The position numbers and the translations under genes are program-made. A DNA stretch of 64,000 nt from Candidatus Atribacteria bacterium UBA6251 (GTDB taxonomy: Bacteria; Atribacterota; Phoenicimicrobiia; Phoenicimicrobiales; Phoenicimicrobiaceae): the NCBI GenBank assembly GCA_002441285.1, contig DJVR01000028.1, positions 2,910 through 66,909 of the forward strand, read 5' to 3'. A model generated the notes under the pieces. It was not told where the DNA came from, searched no databases, and saw only the letters and a list, made by a program, of their open reading frames with translations. This document shows positions 32,634-50,077 of this stretch, one piece after another. Numbering within the stretch: the first letter of the stretch is position 1; each line of letters starts with the position of its first letter.

Positions 32634-35600
32634 ATGACTAAAGAACAAAAATTTTATAAAGCGCTTCAAGATGTTTTCATCGGCGCCAAGATTGAGGGCA
32701 AAGGCGGTTTTGTTAATTTGATGAGGATTAAATCAAATTACTACCGCAAGATTGAAGATATTCTCAAAAATGACATTGAGACGGCTTTGGAAAGTTATCC
32801 CAAATTTAGGGATGAGCTTTTTGACAAACTATACTCATTTTTTAGCCGATACTTTACGAAAAGCGGCTCAATCTATTTCAATTCAACTCCATTTCATAAT
32901 AATATCTATGAAAAAGTCTATACCGATGATAAAGATGTCATTCTCTTTTGGAAAACGCAGATGCTCTACTATGTCAAAACGGATCGGATTTTCAGGAGTT
33001 TGCCAGTTGAATTCCCCTCTGATAGAGGGGTGGGCGCCGAAGGCGGACGGGGTGTTTTAAAATTTTACTTTGACGCTTCAAAGATAGAAAGCAAAAAAGC
33101 CAATGAAAAACGTTCGCTCGTTTTTGAGTTAAACAAAGTCCTTGAGGACGAAACCATTGTTTTTGGCGTTCAATACTCTGAAAGGGGCACAAAAACAAAG
33201 CAAGACGAGATACTAAAAGCCATAAAGAGAAAAGGCATAGCAATTACCGAAGAACAATTGGAACGCGCTTTTAGAGTCTTTGAAAAGCAAAGTGAGGTGG
33301 ATTTCTTTATCAATAAAAATGCCAAAGCATTCTTACAGGAACAATTTAAACTCTGGAGTTATCAGTATTTTTGGGAGGGAGCCAGAGAATGGGGGGCGGA
33401 TAGAGTCAATCAACTGCAAATTCTTAAAGATATTGCTTTCAAGATTATTGATTTCATCTCTCAGTTTGAGGACGAGCTGGTAAAAATCTGGAACAAGCCG
33501 AAGTTTGTTAAAAATTCAAACTATGTAATTACGCTGGGTAGGATTCTTTCTGCACGTCATTCTGAGCGAAGCGAAGAATCTCTTAAGTTAATTGAAAAAA
33601 TTCTAAAACATAAAAATATCACAGAACAAATTAAAGAATGGCAGGAGCTTGGAATTGTAGATAATGAATTTAAGGTAGAGAATGTTTTTGAAAATTCCCC
33701 TTCTATGAAGGGGTGTCAACCGAAGGTTGACGGGGTAGTGAAATGGAATGAATTACCATTCAATGCTGAACTTAAAGAAAGAGCCAAAGAATTGAGAAAA
33801 GCAGGTAATTTATCAGAAGTTTTATTATGGAACCAGGTCAAAAACAGGCAATTGTTGGGATTAGATTTTGATAGGCAAAAAATTATTGGAAATTACATAG
33901 TTGATTTTTATTGTAAAAACTTAGGGGTTGTTGTTGAAATTGATGGAGTAAGTCATGACGGGAAGGTTGAATATGATTTGGAACGAGATGCTTACTTAAG
34001 GGGATTAGGACTGAAAGTTATTCACATTTCCGATCTAGATGTAAAGAAAAATTTAGAAGGTGTAATTGAATTTCTGAAAGATGAATTAAACACCCCGTCT
34101 GCTAACGCAGACACCCCTCTACAAGAGGGGAATAAACACCCCGTCCCTTTGGGACACCCCTCTATAAGAGGGGAATTTAAGCATCTGCCGATTGATACGA
34201 AGTTTTTCAAGGATTTGGAGCTTGAGATTTTATCTCTTTTCGATGACCTTGATAATTCCTTAGATGGTTGGTTGATAAAGAGTGAAAATTATCAGGCGTT
34301 GAATACAATTCTGCCAAAGTTTAAAGAAAAAGTGCAAACGATATACATTGATCCACCGTTTAATACGGGTGATGATTTTCCTTATATTGATAAGTTCCAA
34401 AATTCTACATGGCTTACCTTGATGGAGAATAGATTAAAATTAGGAAAAGATTTTTTATGTTATAATGGTAGTATAAGTTTGCATTTAGATTCAAATGCAG
34501 ATTATTTTGGCAAAATATTATTAGACGAAACATTCGGGCAAGAATGCTTTAGAGTAAAAATTACATGGAAAAGGCACACAGGTCCTAAAATACAATCTCT
34601 ACACTTTCCTAATATATCCGATTTTATTTTAATTTATTCTAAAATAAACGACAATTGGGTATATAATCCTCAATATTTACCGTATAAAGAGGAGTATCTT
34701 AAGAAAATGTATAAGTACGAAGATGAAAAAGGAAAATACAGAATACATGATTTGTATGCTCCTGGGGAAGGGACAGAAAGAATATTCAAAGGGAAAACAA
34801 TAAAACCACCTAAAGGACATCACTGGAGTTATACACAAGAAAAAATTGATGAAATGATTAAAGAAGGAACAATATTTTTTGATAATAGGGGTTTTCCCAA
34901 ATTAAAAGTTTATTTAGGCAAGGGAGAACAAGTAACTAATATTTGGACAGATATAAATGTCATCCAAGGAAGTTCTATCGAATTCTTAAATTTTGCAACT
35001 CAGAAACCAGAAAAATTTTTATCAAGAGTCATACAATCTACATCTAATGTTGGCGACTTGGTTATGGACTTCTTCCTTGGCTCTGGCACAACCACAGCAG
35101 TAGCGCATAAACTCGGCAGGAAATGGATTGGTATTGAAATGGGAGAGCATTTTTATACAGTGGTTTTACCAAGAATGAAAAAGGTTTTGGCTTATGATAA
35201 ATCTGGTATTTCAAAAGAATTAAAAACGCCCCGTCCTTCGGACACCCCTCTACCAGAGGGGAATTCCCCTTCTATGAAGGGGTGGCAACCGCAGGTTGAC
35301 GGGGTAGTTTATCAAGGCGGTGGATTTTTCAAGTATTACGAACTTGAGCAATATGAAGAAGCGCTGGCAAACTGCAAATACGAAGATGGTGATTTGTTTA
35401 ATTCCCCTTTAATAAAGGGGTGGACTGCTGAAGGCAGGACGGGGTATTGGTCGGGCAGAAGTCCATATCAGGAATATGTCTTTATGAAAGACGAAAAAAT
35501 GTTGAAAACATTGGAGATTGATTATGAAAAAGAAAAGGTCAGAGTTGATTTATCAAGACTCTATCTAAACACCCCGTCTGCTAACGCAGACACCCCTCTA

Positions 35601-35756
35601 CAAGAGGGGAATATAGACATTGCCGAAACTCTGTCTAATTTAAAGGGAAAATATATCAAGCGAATTACTCCCGACGAAGTAGAATTTGAAGACGGCGAAA
35701 AAATCAATCTCAAAGATTTAGATTATAAAGTAATTAAACCCTTAATTTGGTGGTAA
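32634..35756 (+). CDS. mod: Type III R-M DNA methyltransferase (Mod; beta-class N6A/N4C MTase) carrying multiple in-frame insertions, including a DUF559 endonuclease domain
   Basis: Catalytic motif IV IYIDPPFNTGDDF comes before AdoMet motif I DFFLGSGTTTAVAHKLGRKWIGIE, the beta-class order typical of type III Mod. It lies 4 nt upstream of a Res-type helicase-nuclease gene. ATG 32634 (MTKEQKFYKAL) is more plausible than the listed TTG 32592. The insertions are listed as separate features. Confidence 0.85.
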   Translation: MTKEQKFYKALQDVFIGAKIEGKGGFVNLMRIKSNYYRKIEDILKNDIETALESYPKFRDELFDKLYSFFSRYFTKSGSIYFNSTPFHNNIYEKVYTDDKDVILFWKTQMLYYVKTDRIFRSLPVEFPSDRGVGAEGGRGVLKFYFDASKIESKKANEKRSLVFELNKVLEDETIVFGVQYSERGTKTKQDEILKAIKRKGIAITEEQLERAFRVFEKQSEVDFFINKNAKAFLQEQFKLWSYQYFWEGAREWGADRVNQLQILKDIAFKIIDFISQFEDELVKIWNKPKFVKNSNYVITLGRILSARHSERSEESLKLIEKILKHKNITEQIKEWQELGIVDNEFKVENVFENSPSMKGCQPKVDGVVKWNELPFNAELKERAKELRKAGNLSEVLLWNQVKNRQLLGLDFDRQKIIGNYIVDFYCKNLGVVVEIDGVSHDGKVEYDLERDAYLRGLGLKVIHISDLDVKKNLEGVIEFLKDELNTPSANADTPLQEGNKHPVPLGHPSIRGEFKHLPIDTKFFKDLELEILSLFDDLDNSLDGWLIKSENYQALNTILPKFKEKVQTIYIDPPFNTGDDFPYIDKFQNSTWLTLMENRLKLGKDFLCYNGSISLHLDSNADYFGKILLDETFGQECFRVKITWKRHTGPKIQSLHFPNISDFILIYSKINDNWVYNPQYLPYKEEYLKKMYKYEDEKGKYRIHDLYAPGEGTERIFKGKTIKPPKGHHWSYTQEKIDEMIKEGTIFFDNRGFPKLKVYLGKGEQVTNIWTDINVIQGSSIEFLNFATQKPEKFLSRVIQSTSNVGDLVMDFFLGSGTTTAVAHKLGRKWIGIEMGEHFYTVVLPRMKKVLAYDKSGISKELKTPRPSDTPLPEGNSPSMKGWQPQVDGVVYQGGGFFKYYELEQYEEALANCKYEDGDLFNSPLIKGWTAEGRTGYWSGRSPYQEYVFMKDEKMLKTLEIDYEKEKVRVDLSRLYLNTPSANADTPLQEGNIDIAETLSNLKGKYIKRITPDEVEFEDGEKINLKDLDYKVIKPLIWW
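33010..33054 (+). repeat. GC-rich double-hairpin element, copy 1 (forward), in frame in mod
   Basis: AATTCCCCTCT GAT AGAGGGG TGGG CGCC GAA GGCG GACGGGGTG, translated as EFPSDRGVGAEGGRGV. Confidence 0.8.
33542..33580 (+). repeat. Second type of small palindromic insert (HSERSEES-encoding) in mod
   Basis: GATTCTT (33542-48) pairs with AAGAATC (33574-80). Between them lies GTCATTCTGAGCGAAGCGAAGAATC, which has internal ATTCT/AGAAT and GC-GAA-GC pairings. Translated as SARHSERSEESL. It is GC-rich relative to its surroundings. Confidence 0.45.
33693..33738 (+). repeat. GC-rich double-hairpin element, copy 2 (forward); left boundary of the DUF559 cassette
   Basis: AATTCCCCTTC TAT GAAGGGG T GTCAACC GAA GGTTGAC GGGGTAG, translated as NSPSMKGCQPKVDGVV. 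Confidence 0.85.
34090..34134 (-). repeat. GC-rich double-hairpin element, copy 3 (inverted); right boundary of the DUF559 cassette
   Basis: ACACCCCGTCTGC TAAC GCAGACACCCCTCT ACA AGAGGGGAATA, translated as NTPSANADTPLQEGN. 34087-34134 is identical to 35566-35613 (48/48). Confidence 0.85.
34136..34177 (-). repeat. GC-rich double-hairpin element, copy 4 (inverted), tandem to copy 3
   Basis: ACACCCCGTCCC TTT GGGACACCCCTCT ATA AGAGGGGAATT, translated as KHPVPLGHPSIRGEF. The reading register differs from copy 3. Confidence 0.8.
35226..35265 (-). repeat. GC-rich double-hairpin element, copy 5 (inverted)
   Basis: ACGCCCCGTCC TTC GGACACCCCTCT ACC AGAGGGGAATT, translated as TPRPSDTPLPEGN (a third register). 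It shares its AATT end with copy 6. Confidence 0.8.
35262..35307 (+). repeat. GC-rich double-hairpin element, copy 6 (forward), abutting copy 5
   Basis: AATTCCCCTTC TAT GAAGGGG TGG CAACC GCA GGTTG ACGGGGTAG, translated as NSPSMKGWQPQVDGVV. The junction with copy 5 forms the 12-bp palindrome GGGGAATTCCCC (35258-35269). Confidence 0.85.
35400..35446 (+). repeat. GC-rich double-hairpin element, copy 7 (forward)
   Basis: AATTCCCCTTT AAT AAAGGGG TGGA CTGC TGAAG GCAG GACGGGGTA, translated as NSPLIKGWTAEGRTGY. Confidence 0.8.
35569..35613 (-). repeat. GC-rich double-hairpin element, copy 8 (inverted), exact duplicate of copy 3
   Basis: ACACCCCGTCTGCTAACGCAGACACCCCTCTACAAGAGGGGAATA, translated as NTPSANADTPLQEGN. 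Confidence 0.85.
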
Positions 35757-35760
35757 TAAT

Positions 35761-38736
35761 ATGGCAAAATTGTATCTTCAAGATATAGTAAATGACATTC
35801 CTTTTGAAAACTTGCCGGCAAAGTGGCAAGGGTTTGATTTTGCGCGGTTTTCAAAAGACAAAACGCTTTTTGATTTTCAAAAACAGGGACTTCAAAACGC
35901 GCTGAAAGGTCTATGGTTTTATTTCAAAGACAAGAACGGAGAAAAGCAAAGTTTGTACAATCACTATTTGGCAAACGACTTTACAGAAAAGTTTGATTAC
36001 GATTTAAAGAAAAAGGCGGAAGGGAAAACAGCAAAATATTTATTGGAATATGATAAAGATTATCCAGTGAAAGGCAATAAGATTTCATTTGCTCACTTTA
36101 TCAATAGAATGAGTTTTTGGATGGCGACCGGTTCAGGAAAAACTCTGATTATAGTTAAGTTGATTGAGCTTTTAGGCAAACTTATTGCCGAAAAAGAATT
36201 GCCGATAGGGGACATTCTTTATTTAGCACACCGCGACGACCTTTTGGACCAGTTTAAAAATCATGTTGAAGAATTTAACAGCTTTCATTTTGACACAAAA
36301 ATTAACCTTAAAAATTTGAGAGATTATGAAAGTGTGAAGCGCGAAAACGCCCTGCCTTTTGCCAAAAACGAAATTACTGTTTTTTATTATCGTTCTGACT
36401 TAATTTCCGATATTCAAAAAGAAAAGATTGTGAATTTCAGAAATTATGACGACAGCGGCAAGTGGTATATTCTTTTGGACGAAGCCCACAAAGGCGACAA
36501 GGAAGACAGTAAACGTCAGATTTTATACTCCATACTTTCAAGGAACGGATTTTTGTTTAATTTTTCCGCTACCTTTACCGATCCAAGGGACTTTGCAACC
36601 TGTGCTTTTAATTTCAATCTTTCAAGGTTTGTTGAAGAAGGATACGGCAAACATATTTATGTGTCTTCTGCCGAGATTAGCGCTTTTCGCGGACGAGGCG
36701 ATTTTTCGCCGATAGAAAAGCAAAAAATCGTTTTGAAAACGCTTTTGCTTTTAACCTATATTAGTAAACACCTTGAAAATATTAGGAGCGTAAATGATAC
36801 CCTATATCACCGTCCATTACTTTTAACTTTAGTTAATACAGTTTATGGCAAGAAAAAAGACGAGGGGGAAATAGAGAAAGAAGCTGATTTGAAATTGTTT
36901 TTCAATGAATTAGAAAAGATTGCCAAGAATGAAATTAGAGCGGATTTGCTCGAAAAAGCAAAACAGGAACTTATCCAAGAGTTTCGCGATGATGCAAAAT
37001 TTGAATTTGAGGAGTTAGAGTGCGCTGTCAACGCAGATTTGGTTTCAAAACTAGATTACAAAGATATTCTGAAATATATTTTGAACGCCGAAACTCCGGG
37101 CAAGATTGAGGTTTTAAAAATTCCCGGCAATAGGCAGGAATTGATTTTTAGGTTGATGACTGCTGAAAAGCCGTTTGCCTTAATCAAAATCGGCGATATT
37201 TCCGGCTGGCTAAAAGATAAACTTGAGGGATATGAAATAAACGAAAGTTTTGAAAATGAAAGTTATTTCCGGCGAATAAGTCGCGATGATTCTGACATAA
37301 ATGTTTTAATGGGTTCGCGCTCTTTTTACGAGGGCTGGGATTCTAACAGGCCAAATCTTATTTTGTTTGTGAATATTGGAGTTGGAAGCGATGCTAAAAA
37401 ATTTGTTCTGCAATCAGTCGGAAGGGGCGTAAGAATAGAGCCACAGAAATATTTAAGAAAGCGTCTTCAAAATTTGTTTAATGCAAAGAAAGTAAAAGAG
37501 CAATTATTTGAGAAAGTTAAGAACCTAATCTTGCCGATTGAGAGCTTGTTTGTTTTTGGGACTAACGCCGAAAACTTGAGAGAAATAATCGCAACACTAA
37601 AAGCGGAAAAGCAAGATAGAAATTTAGGTGAAGCGTTTATTTTAAATCCTGAAGCGCAAAAACATCTTCTTTTGGTGCCGGTTTACAAAAACTCTGAAAG
37701 GATTTTTGCCGAAGAAAAAGACCCGCAGAAATATTCTATCAGTCGCAAAGATTTTGATATAACATCTCAATTTTATGGATTTTTAGGCGATAAAATCGCT
37801 TTAGCCAAATATGATTGCGAAGTGAAGGTTTTAAAGAAAGCAAAAGAAAGTTTTGAAGAAAAAGAACGATACTATGATTTTAGCGAAAGAAATTCGCTTT
37901 TTGAGCCGGAGTTAACCCTTGGCCAGATTTTTGATTATCTCGGAGTTAAAAGCAAGGAGTTTGAAACGTTTAAAGAGTTGGAAAATGAAATTGTGCATTT
38001 CAAAAAGGTTAGATTCAGTGATGGTGGAAAATACCAAAAGATGTTAGAAGCGATTGATAAAGTTAAAAATTATCCACAAAAAAAAATCAAAGAAAAAGAG
38101 GTAGATGAAGAGTTTGATAGAACAAGGAATAAAGAAAAGTATAAACAAGAATTAAAGCAACTTGAGTTAAATTTTCAACGAGAAGTAAGGTATGACAAAT
38201 TAAAAATTAAGTATTTAGCCAACCATTACTATCTTCCGGTTATAGTTTCAGAAACTGAAAAAATTGACTACCTGAACCATATTATTAATGTTGATAGTGA
38301 GGTAAAATTTATTGAAGAATTGGGGGAAAATATTGATAAATTAAAAAATATTTTTGATTGGTGGATGTTTTCAAAACTTGACCAAACACTGGATGAAGTA
38401 TCAATACCTTATTACAATCCGAAAGAAAATAGTATCTCTAATTTCAAACCCGACTTCATTTTTTGGGCACAAAAAGGAAACCGATACTTTATTTTATTTG
38501 TTGACCCTAAGGGAACCGAACATGCAGACGGTTATAGAAAGATTGACGGCTATTCAAGAATATTTGAAATTGAAAAAGATGGACAAAAACAAAGCAAAGA
38601 TTTTTTATACTCTGAATTTACCATAAATGTGAAGCTATTGCTGAAACCAAGGCGAGGAAAAGCTGGAGTTTTGAATAATTACAAAGGATACTGGTTTGAC
38701 AATTTCGAGGATTTTAATAATAAAATAAAAATATAG
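35761..38736 (+). CDS. res: Type III restriction enzyme Res subunit (SF2 helicase-like ATPase with C-terminal PD-(D/E)xK nuclease)
   Basis: 991 aa. Motif I WMATGSGKT, motif II ILLDEAHKG, motif III FNFSATF, motif VI QSVGRGVRI. C-terminal nuclease-like FKPDFIFW...FILFVDPKG. Starts 4 nt after the mod stop. Confidence 0.8.
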   Translation: MAKLYLQDIVNDIPFENLPAKWQGFDFARFSKDKTLFDFQKQGLQNALKGLWFYFKDKNGEKQSLYNHYLANDFTEKFDYDLKKKAEGKTAKYLLEYDKDYPVKGNKISFAHFINRMSFWMATGSGKTLIIVKLIELLGKLIAEKELPIGDILYLAHRDDLLDQFKNHVEEFNSFHFDTKINLKNLRDYESVKRENALPFAKNEITVFYYRSDLISDIQKEKIVNFRNYDDSGKWYILLDEAHKGDKEDSKRQILYSILSRNGFLFNFSATFTDPRDFATCAFNFNLSRFVEEGYGKHIYVSSAEISAFRGRGDFSPIEKQKIVLKTLLLLTYISKHLENIRSVNDTLYHRPLLLTLVNTVYGKKKDEGEIEKEADLKLFFNELEKIAKNEIRADLLEKAKQELIQEFRDDAKFEFEELECAVNADLVSKLDYKDILKYILNAETPGKIEVLKIPGNRQELIFRLMTAEKPFALIKIGDISGWLKDKLEGYEINESFENESYFRRISRDDSDINVLMGSRSFYEGWDSNRPNLILFVNIGVGSDAKKFVLQSVGRGVRIEPQKYLRKRLQNLFNAKKVKEQLFEKVKNLILPIESLFVFGTNAENLREIIATLKAEKQDRNLGEAFILNPEAQKHLLLVPVYKNSERIFAEEKDPQKYSISRKDFDITSQFYGFLGDKIALAKYDCEVKVLKKAKESFEEKERYYDFSERNSLFEPELTLGQIFDYLGVKSKEFETFKELENEIVHFKKVRFSDGGKYQKMLEAIDKVKNYPQKKIKEKEVDEEFDRTRNKEKYKQELKQLELNFQREVRYDKLKIKYLANHYYLPVIVSETEKIDYLNHIINVDSEVKFIEELGENIDKLKNIFDWWMFSKLDQTLDEVSIPYYNPKENSISNFKPDFIFWAQKGNRYFILFVDPKGTEHADGYRKIDGYSRIFEIEKDGQKQSKDFLYSEFTINVKLLLKPRRGKAGVLNNYKGYWFDNFEDFNNKIKI

Positions 38737-49740: not shown

Positions 49741-49860
49741 TCAAAAATAAGTAGAAAGTTTAGAAACGAAATTTTTAATTAGAAAGGAGGATTAGATTAA
49801 AAATTTAATCTACTCATTTATTTGGCAGGTTGAGATTACTTGTATTTAAAATAAATACAA

Positions 49861-50024
49861 GGTAGAGGTGCGGATATTAATGAGTAAAGGCAAAATAAAA
49901 TAATTAGCCTTGAAAGGTATATCCGCCGAAGCAAGAAAGATTATAAAATCTTCTTGCTGGGCTTATAGTGAATAACTATAAGACTGTCATCAAATCTTTC
50001 CCCTGATTTAGATGGAGCGCTACC
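49861..50024 (+). promoter_or_regulatory. Lysine riboswitch (L-box) aptamer
   Basis: All conserved L-box blocks are present in order: GGTAGAGGTGCGG...AATGAGTAAAGG...TGAAAGG...TCCGCCGAAGC...CTGGGC...GACTGTCA...[P5 hairpin CATCAAATC/GATTTAGATG]...TGGAGCGCTACC. P1 is GGTAG (49861-65) pairing with CTACC (50020-24). Confidence 0.85.
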
Positions 50025-50077
50025 TATTTGTCTGGTAGAGGTCTTTATTTAATAATGGGGAAGGGAAGCTTATATTT

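Follow-up and report, generated by a model that had tools for sequence, protein, structure and literature searches.

A GC-rich repeat with a triplex-like tail code, inserted in frame in a type III mod gene and associated with DUF559 nuclease genes

The Rickettsia palindromic elements (RPEs), reportedly described by Ogata et al. in 2000, are said to be inserted in frame into open reading frames (ORFs) that remain open, the extra peptide being predicted to lie on the protein surface. RPEs are approximately 100-150 bp in length, form the families RPE-1 to RPE-8, occur only in Rickettsia and its relatives, and contain no nuclease gene and no triplex-coded tail. Double-hairpin elements, or GC clusters, of fungal mitochondria, some located in coding regions and near mobile endonuclease ORFs, were reportedly described by Paquin, Laforest and Lang in 2000. 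Regarding the intrastrand triplex repeats recognized in Escherichia coli since the 1990s, we know of no function, partner protein or explanation of their spread, and to our knowledge DUF559/YcjD, a very large family of predicted nucleases, has no known role. Holder et al. (2015, PMC4666352) report that TMECO/BoxC adopts a triplex in vitro, that in E. coli its location is always intergenic and that it shows no association with mobile elements, and PIT elements block polymerases in vitro (PMC4666352). Other systems that merit comparison are REP/REPIN repeats with their RAYT enzymes (Bertels and Rainey 2011, PMC3116915; PMC3337134) and the EDxHD/Vsr-like homing endonucleases (Dassa 2009, PMC2677866; Taylor and Stoddard 2012, PMC3384342). 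Here, a stretch of 64,000 nt (the window) from contig DJVR01000028.1 of Candidatus Atribacteria bacterium UBA6251 was analyzed, in which the type III restriction-modification gene mod (32634..35756, forward strand, 1040 amino acids) contains eight copies of one GC-rich element of 45-50 nt, with none elsewhere in the 64 kb.

The pattern CCCCT-N7-AGGGG occurs eight times in the window, always within mod, against 0.05 occurrences expected by chance. A covariance model of the element, built from 127 unique copies and run over the 64 kb with filters off, returned exactly those eight copies with E values of 1e-12 to 1e-24, the next best match having E ~1. The eight copies listed in an initial annotation of this DNA lie at the coordinates given there and were recovered by both approaches, and its observation that neither the neighboring res gene nor the rest of the window holds another was confirmed. 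Each copy follows a 5' flank of (A)ATT and is composed of a 7-bp hairpin A (CCCCTYY-NNN-RRAGGGG), one T, a hairpin B and a G/T-rich tail. Folded as single-stranded DNA with ViennaRNA, a calculation that covers the two hairpins alone and leaves the tail unpaired, all eight form two hairpins with z values of -2.6 to -6.0 and the last 8-10 nt unpaired. Three pairs of hairpin B display 46-69 compensatory double changes, including all four Watson-Crick pair types, among the 127 unique copies; these come from many phyla, so that the covariation first remarked in the window extends well beyond it. The GC content is 51.6% in the elements, compared with 34.6% in the genome, 33.6% in mod without elements and 31.5% in the core of the DUF559 domain described below, demonstrating that it is the nucleotide sequence of the repeat itself that stays GC-rich and not the host gene.

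The description as a double hairpin applies to every copy and is incomplete, since a tail that covaries with hairpin A had been overlooked. What was given as a constant 3' end, ACGGGGTA, is actually GGGG-T-(G/A)-(G/T)-T. The sequence after ACGGGG was left unconstrained by the search pattern, so that a match between tail and arm was not built in. Arms CCCCTCC/GGAGGGG are accompanied by the tail GGGGTGG in 96 unique copies, CCCCTTC/GAAGGGG by GGGGTAG in 24, CCCCTCT/AGAGGGG by GGGGTGT in 21, and CCCCTTT/AAAGGGG by GGGGTAT in 2. In this three-way covariation the tail mirrors the purine arm, with G opposite G and either A or T opposite A, which is the triplet code of an antiparallel purine motif (G*G-C, A*A-T, T*A-T). 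The code is perfect in seven of the eight window copies, with a single mismatch in the other, and the strand order of pyrimidine arm, purine arm and reverse-Hoogsteen arm is common to all eight. Across all DNA collected, a correctly coded third strand is present in 227 of 250 copies with a canonical hairpin A, and 137 of the 147 distinct arm/B/tail classes obey the code. Moreover, 13 identical hairpin B sequences are shared by different arm types, the tail in each case going with the arm. Unrelated stems follow the same code, namely ACCCTCTTT...AAAGAGGGT...GGGTGTTTT in the metagenome-assembled genome (MAG) of a member of the Oscillospiraceae, CTCCTCT with GAGGTGT in a Bacillota MAG, and CCCCCTC with GGGGGTG. 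Two other readings were considered and rejected: Watson-Crick pairing between tail and 5' arm, since such pairs would not survive the substitutions seen, and a hammerhead-like reading of CUGAUAG in copy 1, because that loop varies among copies.

This architecture corresponds to a class II intrastrand triplex motif of the PIT/BoxC/TMECO kind in which hairpin B occupies the second loop. No Rfam family matches the element, either at the gathering threshold on the whole window or at E <= 1 on mod, in agreement with the initial annotation, which had recognized no described family and had missed the kinship with triplex repeats. In common with PIT/BoxC/TMECO, the element has the class II arm order and perfect G*G-C and A/T*A-T coding, occurs as conserved dispersed singlets and inverted pairs with a patchy distribution across species, and has linkers of 2-3 nt in hairpin-B-less versions, of which nine relatives were found; otherwise the linker is a covarying hairpin of 12-24 nt. 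It differs in this long second loop, in having stems of 7 rather than 9 nt and in its sequence, the stems CCCCTYY/RRAGGGG falling outside the TMECO pattern CCCTCNCCC-N3-6-GGGNGAGGG-N3-GGGNGAGGG. Unlike TMECO, it is also located in frame inside genes and brackets a nuclease gene. The second loop is limited to 3 nt in TMECO, to <=6 nt in ITxF and to <=10 nt in Hoyne et al. 2000 (PMC4666352), and published searches with loops of <=6 or <=10 nt would therefore have missed the hairpin-B form. Purine-motif triplexes are reported not to form in RNA (PMC4666352). Should a real fold underlie the code, DNA and not mRNA would be under constraint.

The copies in mod comprise solo insertions, a doublet and a bracketed cassette. 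The solo copy at 33010..33056 (forward strand), with pyrimidine arm CCCCTCT, purine arm AGAGGGG, hairpin B GGCGCC/GGCGG and third strand GGGGTGT, encodes EFPSDRGVGAEGGRGV; its site is empty in homologues P0004 and P0088, with a net gain of 36 nt here, and was also struck independently by other inserts in homologues. A second solo copy at 35400..35448 (forward) belongs to the rare TTT/AAA arm type, has the matching tail GGGGTAT and encodes NSPLIKGWTAEGRTGYW, its site being empty and already reading TTTAATTCNCCT in P0003, P0004 and P0088 (net +45 nt here). The solo inverted copy at 35566..35613 (reverse strand), encoding LNTPSANADTPLQEGN, is a recent duplicate of 34087-34134, with which the reported identity of 48/48 nt was reproduced; its site is empty in P0004 and P0088 (net +42 nt here). 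At 35221..35308, two copies that share GAATTC form a head-to-head doublet. Its inverted half (35221..35265, reverse) encodes KTPRPSDTPLPEGN and has the tail GGGGCGT, representing the one triplet-code mismatch, while its forward half (35262..35308, forward) encodes NSPSMKGWQPQVDGVV and is 96% identical to 33693-33739; many homologues have the 35221..35265 copy alone at this site, or none. The remaining three copies bracket the DUF559 cassette. Its left terminus (33693..33739, forward) has pyrimidine arm CCCCTTC, purine arm GAAGGGG and third strand GGGGTAG and encodes NSPSMKGCQPKVDGVV; copy 1 of its right terminus (34087..34134, reverse) encodes NTPSANADTPLQEGN and is abutted by a second inverted copy (34133..34177, reverse) encoding KHPVPLGHPSIRGEF. 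The Mod frame is continuous through all insertions. The notion that the element is stop-free in at least five reading frames is true only for the copy at 33010 (five of six open), the other seven being open in two to four. At hairpin A, two registers are used by forward copies, as previously stated, and two by inverted copies, for which the three registers claimed are seen at the CCCCGT end only.

Alignment of Mod homologues (18 proteins, later 82; 52-87% identity) demonstrates that the eight segments are insertions and not ancestral protein sequence, as had been proposed: the homologues lack exactly these peptides or hold copies elsewhere. The other finding that would have refuted the initial proposal, absence of further copies from other DNA, is contradicted by the abundance of the element elsewhere. 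Element peptides are present or absent at exactly the insert positions of the window, and 61 of the 82 proteins contain at least one; no fewer than 13 distinct sites are occupied in all, and a single protein holds as many as 11. The site at residue 126 was struck by at least five different inserts among the homologues, comprising a full element, a hairpin-B-less version, three copies in tandem, an inverted copy paired with a forward one and a GC-rich hairpin of unrelated sequence. Nested copies are found in P0005, P0127 and P0185, for example NSPSPKGWQ[EFPSGRGVDAKGGRGV]SDGVV. Comparison of filled and empty mod sites at the DNA level yields net inserts of +36, +42 and +45 nt with junction microhomology of AATT, AATTCNCC or xAAAC; the empty sites already read GAATT, TTTAATTCNCCT or xAAAC, and some host codons were replaced. 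The use of both orientations and several registers, together with the covariation of hairpin B, supports the original view that structure is conserved and not peptide. The comparison then made with RPEs holds for in-frame insertion with the host ORF kept open, and had not extended to the nuclease cassette or the triplex kinship. By its length of 45-49 nt, and by the description of RPEs given above, the element is set apart from them. The fungal mitochondrial elements resemble it, by description, as short GC-rich two-hairpin mobile DNA in AT-rich genomes, and differ in being organellar, unrelated in sequence and without a reported third-strand code.

Other small inserts were observed in the same gene family. 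At 33534-33590 of the window, mod contains an unrelated GC-richer insert encoding LSARHSERSEES, which is also found in P0001, P0009 and P0056 and, as a variant, in P0016; it is absent from most homologues and looks like another small mobile repeat family. A further GC-rich family, encoding PAYAEASAGRDG or PAFAKASAGK, occupies the hot spot at residue 126 in P0030, P0045 and P0095 and a site nearby, at residue ~165, in P0002. Several unrelated hairpin repeats thus colonize this gene family.

Mod had been read as continuous methyltransferase sequence on either side of each copy, which is incorrect for 33740-34086, where Pfam identifies a DUF559 nuclease domain (E = 2e-28). This Vsr-like PD-(D/E)XK nuclease (PF04480; 33771..34085, forward strand) is in frame, corresponds to Mod residues 380-484 and has its motifs GNYIVDF and EIDGVSH intact. 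It matches PDB entry 3hrl with E = 3e-12 by sequence, 4e-19 with a profile and a Foldseek TM of 0.86, while the match to homing endonuclease I-Bth0305I (3r3p; Foldseek E = 0.017) is at fold level only, with no sequence match. Together with the forward copy at 33693-33739 and the inverted copies at 34087-34177, it forms a cassette at 33693-34177. The DUF559 stretch is an insertion and not methylase sequence, being absent from about half of the Mod homologues and located at two different sites in the rest; in P0045 the cassette site is occupied by a doublet that lacks DUF559. Insertion of the cassette was accompanied by the loss of ~10 host codons. Pfam finds no intein or Hint domain in Mod, and an intein was accordingly rejected.

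The link between DUF559 and the repeat was examined without bias in 80 metagenomic loci picked by DUF559 core peptides alone. A perfect triplex motif is located within 300 nt in 70 of the 80 loci, compared with 10 of 114 control windows at 800-1100 nt from DUF559. The motif is forward on the upstream side in 53 of 75 cases and inverted on the downstream side in 52 of 76, the opposite orientations amounting to 18 and 14. Furthermore, element peptides are present in 81 of the 120 closest DUF559 proteins, the sources of which include candidate phyla radiation (CPR) bacteria, a DPANN archaeon and cyanobacteria. These data bear on whether the repeats are instead elements similar to MITEs (miniature inverted-repeat transposable elements) or REPs moved by an unrelated transposase, for instance of IS200/IS605 or RAYT type, DUF559 being a landing site or passenger and the tail match a product of a few founder haplotypes or of a mirror site bound by protein. 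For most copies the 8 kb retrieved contains no DUF559 (106 of the 120 element loci listed), their singlets and inverted doublets look like REP/REPIN, four arm/tail haplotypes dominate the main family, and DUF559 has no known strand-transfer chemistry, all of which would fit such an origin. Against it stand the fixed-orientation bracketing of DUF559 in ~70% of independently chosen loci compared with 9% of controls, the pairing of different DUF559 clades with different motifs of the same architecture, and the mirror code itself, which is obeyed by unrelated stems and persists where different arm types share a hairpin B. MITEs, which derive from a transposase-encoding IS, combine terminal inverted repeats with a target-site duplication; here the ends of cassettes and doublets are inverted, no consistent target-site duplication was found, and no transposase gene was met beside the loci examined, though no systematic search was made. 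An unrelated transposase is therefore considered unlikely.

The resemblance to REP/REPIN-RAYT is nevertheless considerable, consisting of structured singlets and inverted doublets, an enzyme gene flanked by inverted copies, and enzyme clades paired with repeat classes. The enzyme here is a Vsr-like PD-(D/E)XK DUF559 protein, for which Pfam reports DUF559 only, and not an HUH Y1 transposase. In contrast with REP, the element has no GTAG/CGTC tag, possesses a third strand and is tolerated inside ORFs, and whereas REP/RAYT are inherited vertically, it spans phyla and travels with restriction-modification genes.

Approximately 38 of the 80 DUF559 loci are in frame within ORFs of >350 amino acids. 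Among 19 in-frame host ORFs scanned against Pfam, 16 are restriction-modification proteins, one is a fumarase C and two have no host domain. The restriction-modification hosts comprise N6_N4 methyltransferases, in which the position of the cassette varies, as well as HsdS, HsdR and Type ISP/IIG enzymes. The plasmid collection contains distant DUF559 relatives only, with <45% identity. The range of cassette hosts argues against the cassette being a homing endonuclease gene that spreads between restriction-modification alleles, with the repeats as a co-converted linker or landing pad and the solo copies as deletion scars. That possibility draws on the Vsr-like fold, related to the EDxHD homing endonuclease I-Bth0305I (PMC3384342, PMC3424549), on the presence or absence of the cassette at the same site in homologues and its two distinct sites in Mod, on the doublet in P0045, and on the host codons lost. 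A Vsr-fold nuclease within an invasive in-gene insertion and presence/absence polymorphism among homologues are indeed shared with EDxHD/Vsr-like homing endonucleases. However, the cassette is found in many unrelated hosts and in intergenic DNA, so there is no single homing site; it has no intron or intein, its nuclease is translated within the host protein, and it occupies many unrelated sites. Solo copies, moreover, are present at many sites where no homologue has DUF559, and deletion scars would neither preserve hairpin, connector and coded tail intact nor amount to hundreds of copies that are mostly intergenic. Homing thus has only a small chance of being the correct explanation.

A class II fumarase (Lyase_1 + FumaraseC_C; locus L190, 6-2117) contains the entire DUF559 cassette, in frame and immediately ahead of the conserved HPNDHVN segment, with junctions ...VEGH|NSPPSEGWHFAQQNDGVV...DUF559...TPPKEGNDHPTATRHPSEGGEC|YIHPNDHV.... 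The cassette can thus reside in a housekeeping enzyme.

The element was further located by a pattern scan of one genome per species, which yielded at least 120 loci and at least 153 copies. Hosts among the listed loci include Verrucomicrobiota, Cyanobacteria, cultured Chryseobacterium species, Patescibacteria and Cloacimonadota, as well as Chlorobiota, Fibrobacterota, Proteobacteria and Firmicutes. Both singlets and inverted doublets are seen at these loci. Of 116 scorable copies, only 16 are inside long ORFs and 83 are in no long ORF; clear in-frame hosts among the listed loci include HsdR, HsdS, a type IIG enzyme and a RecJ-like protein. The family is thus mainly intergenic, with the eight-copy mod gene as an extreme case, and residence in frame is a survivable outcome and not the defining habit of the element. 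The element was found on only eight stretches of viral contigs, and phages are therefore not the main vehicle. At the genome loci (L001-L120), core length is divisible by three in 69 of 118 unique copies (58%, 33% being expected), an excess which may arise from selection in coding contexts or from dominance of a 42-nt founder type.

The mainly intergenic location also bears on whether the host keeps the copies in mod for a function, whether as hot spots of instability or recombination that diversify restriction-modification genes, as flexible linkers or in mRNA regulation. In E. coli, triplex repeats are tied to local genomic instability (PMC4666352), the bias towards restriction-modification hosts (16 of 19) is pronounced, and mod and res are intact here. 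On the other hand, orthologous copies decay, one on a homologous contig (L122) scoring 46.8 bits compared with 64.5 here, and homologues manage without them. The variable target-recognition region is not flanked by copies, RNA is reported not to form purine-motif triplexes (PMC4666352), and the use of both orientations and several registers means that there is no conserved peptide and no one conserved mRNA structure. A function kept by the host is accordingly regarded as highly improbable. On a second contig, copies are restricted to the restriction-modification and defence island.

The findings are probably best explained by a selfish system of repeat and nuclease, similar to REP/RAYT and tolerated within reading frames in the form of loop peptides, for which the following mobilization mechanism is proposed. 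The functional form would be the folded single strand, with the tail lying antiparallel in the major groove of hairpin A as a class II purine-motif intrastrand triplex, possibly formed in single-stranded DNA at replication or repair. The autonomous-looking unit would be the DUF559 gene bracketed by one forward and one inverted copy, represented in mod by 33693-34177, while the other five copies would be solo or doublet derivatives analogous to REP/REPIN around RAYT. DUF559 may recognize or cut the folded or duplex element, and new copies may arise by break- or stall-induced templated repair with microhomology and not by cut-and-paste, a route that would fit the microhomology, hot spots and loss of host codons at junctions. 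Copies within genes would persist if their net length is a multiple of three, the frame is free of stops and the Pro/Gly/Ser-rich peptide falls in a loop, and a non-essential, horizontally mobile restriction-modification gene would tolerate such inserts well. In the AlphaFold2 model of Mod (mean predicted local distance difference test score, pLDDT, 65.9), DUF559 is folded and all inserts are predicted as low-confidence coil with pLDDT <50, which bears on the initial suggestion to look for them in surface loops; they are read as loop peptides.

A broader proposal, that DUF559 nucleases including E. coli YcjD are dedicated partners of intrastrand-triplex repeats including BoxC/TMECO, is put forward tentatively. 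It would make a folded DNA triple helix the recognition element of a prokaryote-wide selfish class, the unit of which can live in frame, preferentially in restriction-modification enzymes. In the HHFIVDF clade of DUF559 a different triplex motif is present, CCCCCCTT...GGGGGGAT, and different triplex motifs of the same architecture are also carried by distant DUF559 loci in S. meliloti, D. proteolyticus, Pseudanabaena and Photobacterium. In E. coli, the 3' end of ycjD, annotated as DUF559 domain-containing, overlaps an inverted BoxC/TMECO; a degenerate copy and a TMECO in forward orientation follow within the next 200 nt. This stretch (L214, 2501-3075) corresponds to NZ_CP141089.1 4784238-4784812, is the same in NZ_CP032515.1 and others, and is present over at least 80% of its length in 3333 of 5426 complete E. 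coli genomes; the TMECO paper makes no mention of ycjD (PMC4666352).

Several points weigh against these readings. The triplex is deduced for this sequence from covariation and not from experimental demonstration, and the tail/arm association of the main family rests on four haplotypes, relatedness inflating the counts. A PD-(D/E)XK nuclease alone is not a transposase, and for the 106 element loci mentioned above no DUF559 was found within the 8 kb retrieved. Mods with DUF559 contain 1.62 solo copies elsewhere compared with 0.73 in those without (p = 0.006), a difference uncorrected for phylogeny, as is the concordance of end types. Codon-level alignments of filled and empty sites display no clean target-site duplication, only junction microhomology, and an all-against-all BLAST of ~215 loci produced one near-identical filled/empty pair, in which the insertion is complex. 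The pLDDT of <50 at the Mod inserts may partly stem from sparse alignment columns there. At four of nine distant DUF559 loci no perfect triplex motif is present, and in vivo dimethyl sulfate (DMS) footprinting of TMECO revealed no protection (PMC4666352).

As regards novelty, the triplex-repeat class, in-frame selfish palindromes and Vsr-like homing endonucleases are already known. The hairpin-B variant, in-frame colonization, the restriction-modification bias and the general association of DUF559 with triplex repeats were not found in the searchable literature, which is incomplete, so that an earlier description of the element or of the link is possible. There is a substantial chance that a new class of nuclease-plus-repeat system is represented here. 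Triplex repeats and DUF559 show a consistent physical link in many phyla, each clade having its own motifs, and the open questions concerning each therefore become testable in E. coli. The element provides a second and much more widespread case of in-frame selfish DNA after RPEs, for which restriction-modification genes appear a favored refuge among the hosts checked. In the annotation of metagenomic proteins, it accounts for thousands of odd Pro/Gly-rich peptide segments and for calls of a "methylase/Vsr fusion".

Further arrangements were observed at distant DUF559 loci. In Photobacterium sp. GJ3 (L224, 1919-3359), an array of ~14 triplex motifs lies downstream of DUF559; they belong to two sequence types, alternate between forward and inverted and are spaced ~150 nt apart. 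On a Synechocystis sp. B12 plasmid (L217, 831-3354), a stand-alone DUF559 is located between a 175-residue DUF1156 fragment and a downstream "hypothetical protein", and a gene may have been split here by the cassette; on the related Picosynechococcus PCC 7003 plasmid (L220), the DUF1156 methylase gene is intact and DUF559 lies just upstream of it. These two plasmid loci yielded no perfect triplex motif. On a Sphingomonas parapaucimobilis plasmid (L218, 1465-1875), a DUF559 gene separates sufB from sufC in the operon for Fe-S cluster assembly.

The host gene itself has the features of a type III Mod. It encodes a beta-class N6_N4 methyltransferase (Pfam N6_N4_Mtase, E = 1e-36) with intact DPPF (residue 573) and FLGSG (residue 814, FxGxG) catalytic motifs, its fold matches EcoP15I Mod (4zcf) and Mbo45V Mod (7dsu) in Foldseek, and a ResIII helicase-nuclease gene is adjacent. 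The latter, res (35761..38736, forward strand; Pfam ResIII), is directly downstream of mod and has no covariance-model match to the element. While mod and res adjoin here, other defence genes lie between them at the homologous loci L122 (13125-20960) and L123 (5306-6685), the spacer comprising SIR2, DUF87 and a ThsB-like TIR gene in one such locus and DarT in another. In L122, copies of the element are present in the res region as well, where res is split into two ORF calls. Elsewhere in the window, a lysine riboswitch (Rfam RF00168, 118.6 bits) is located at 49855-50030 on the forward strand.

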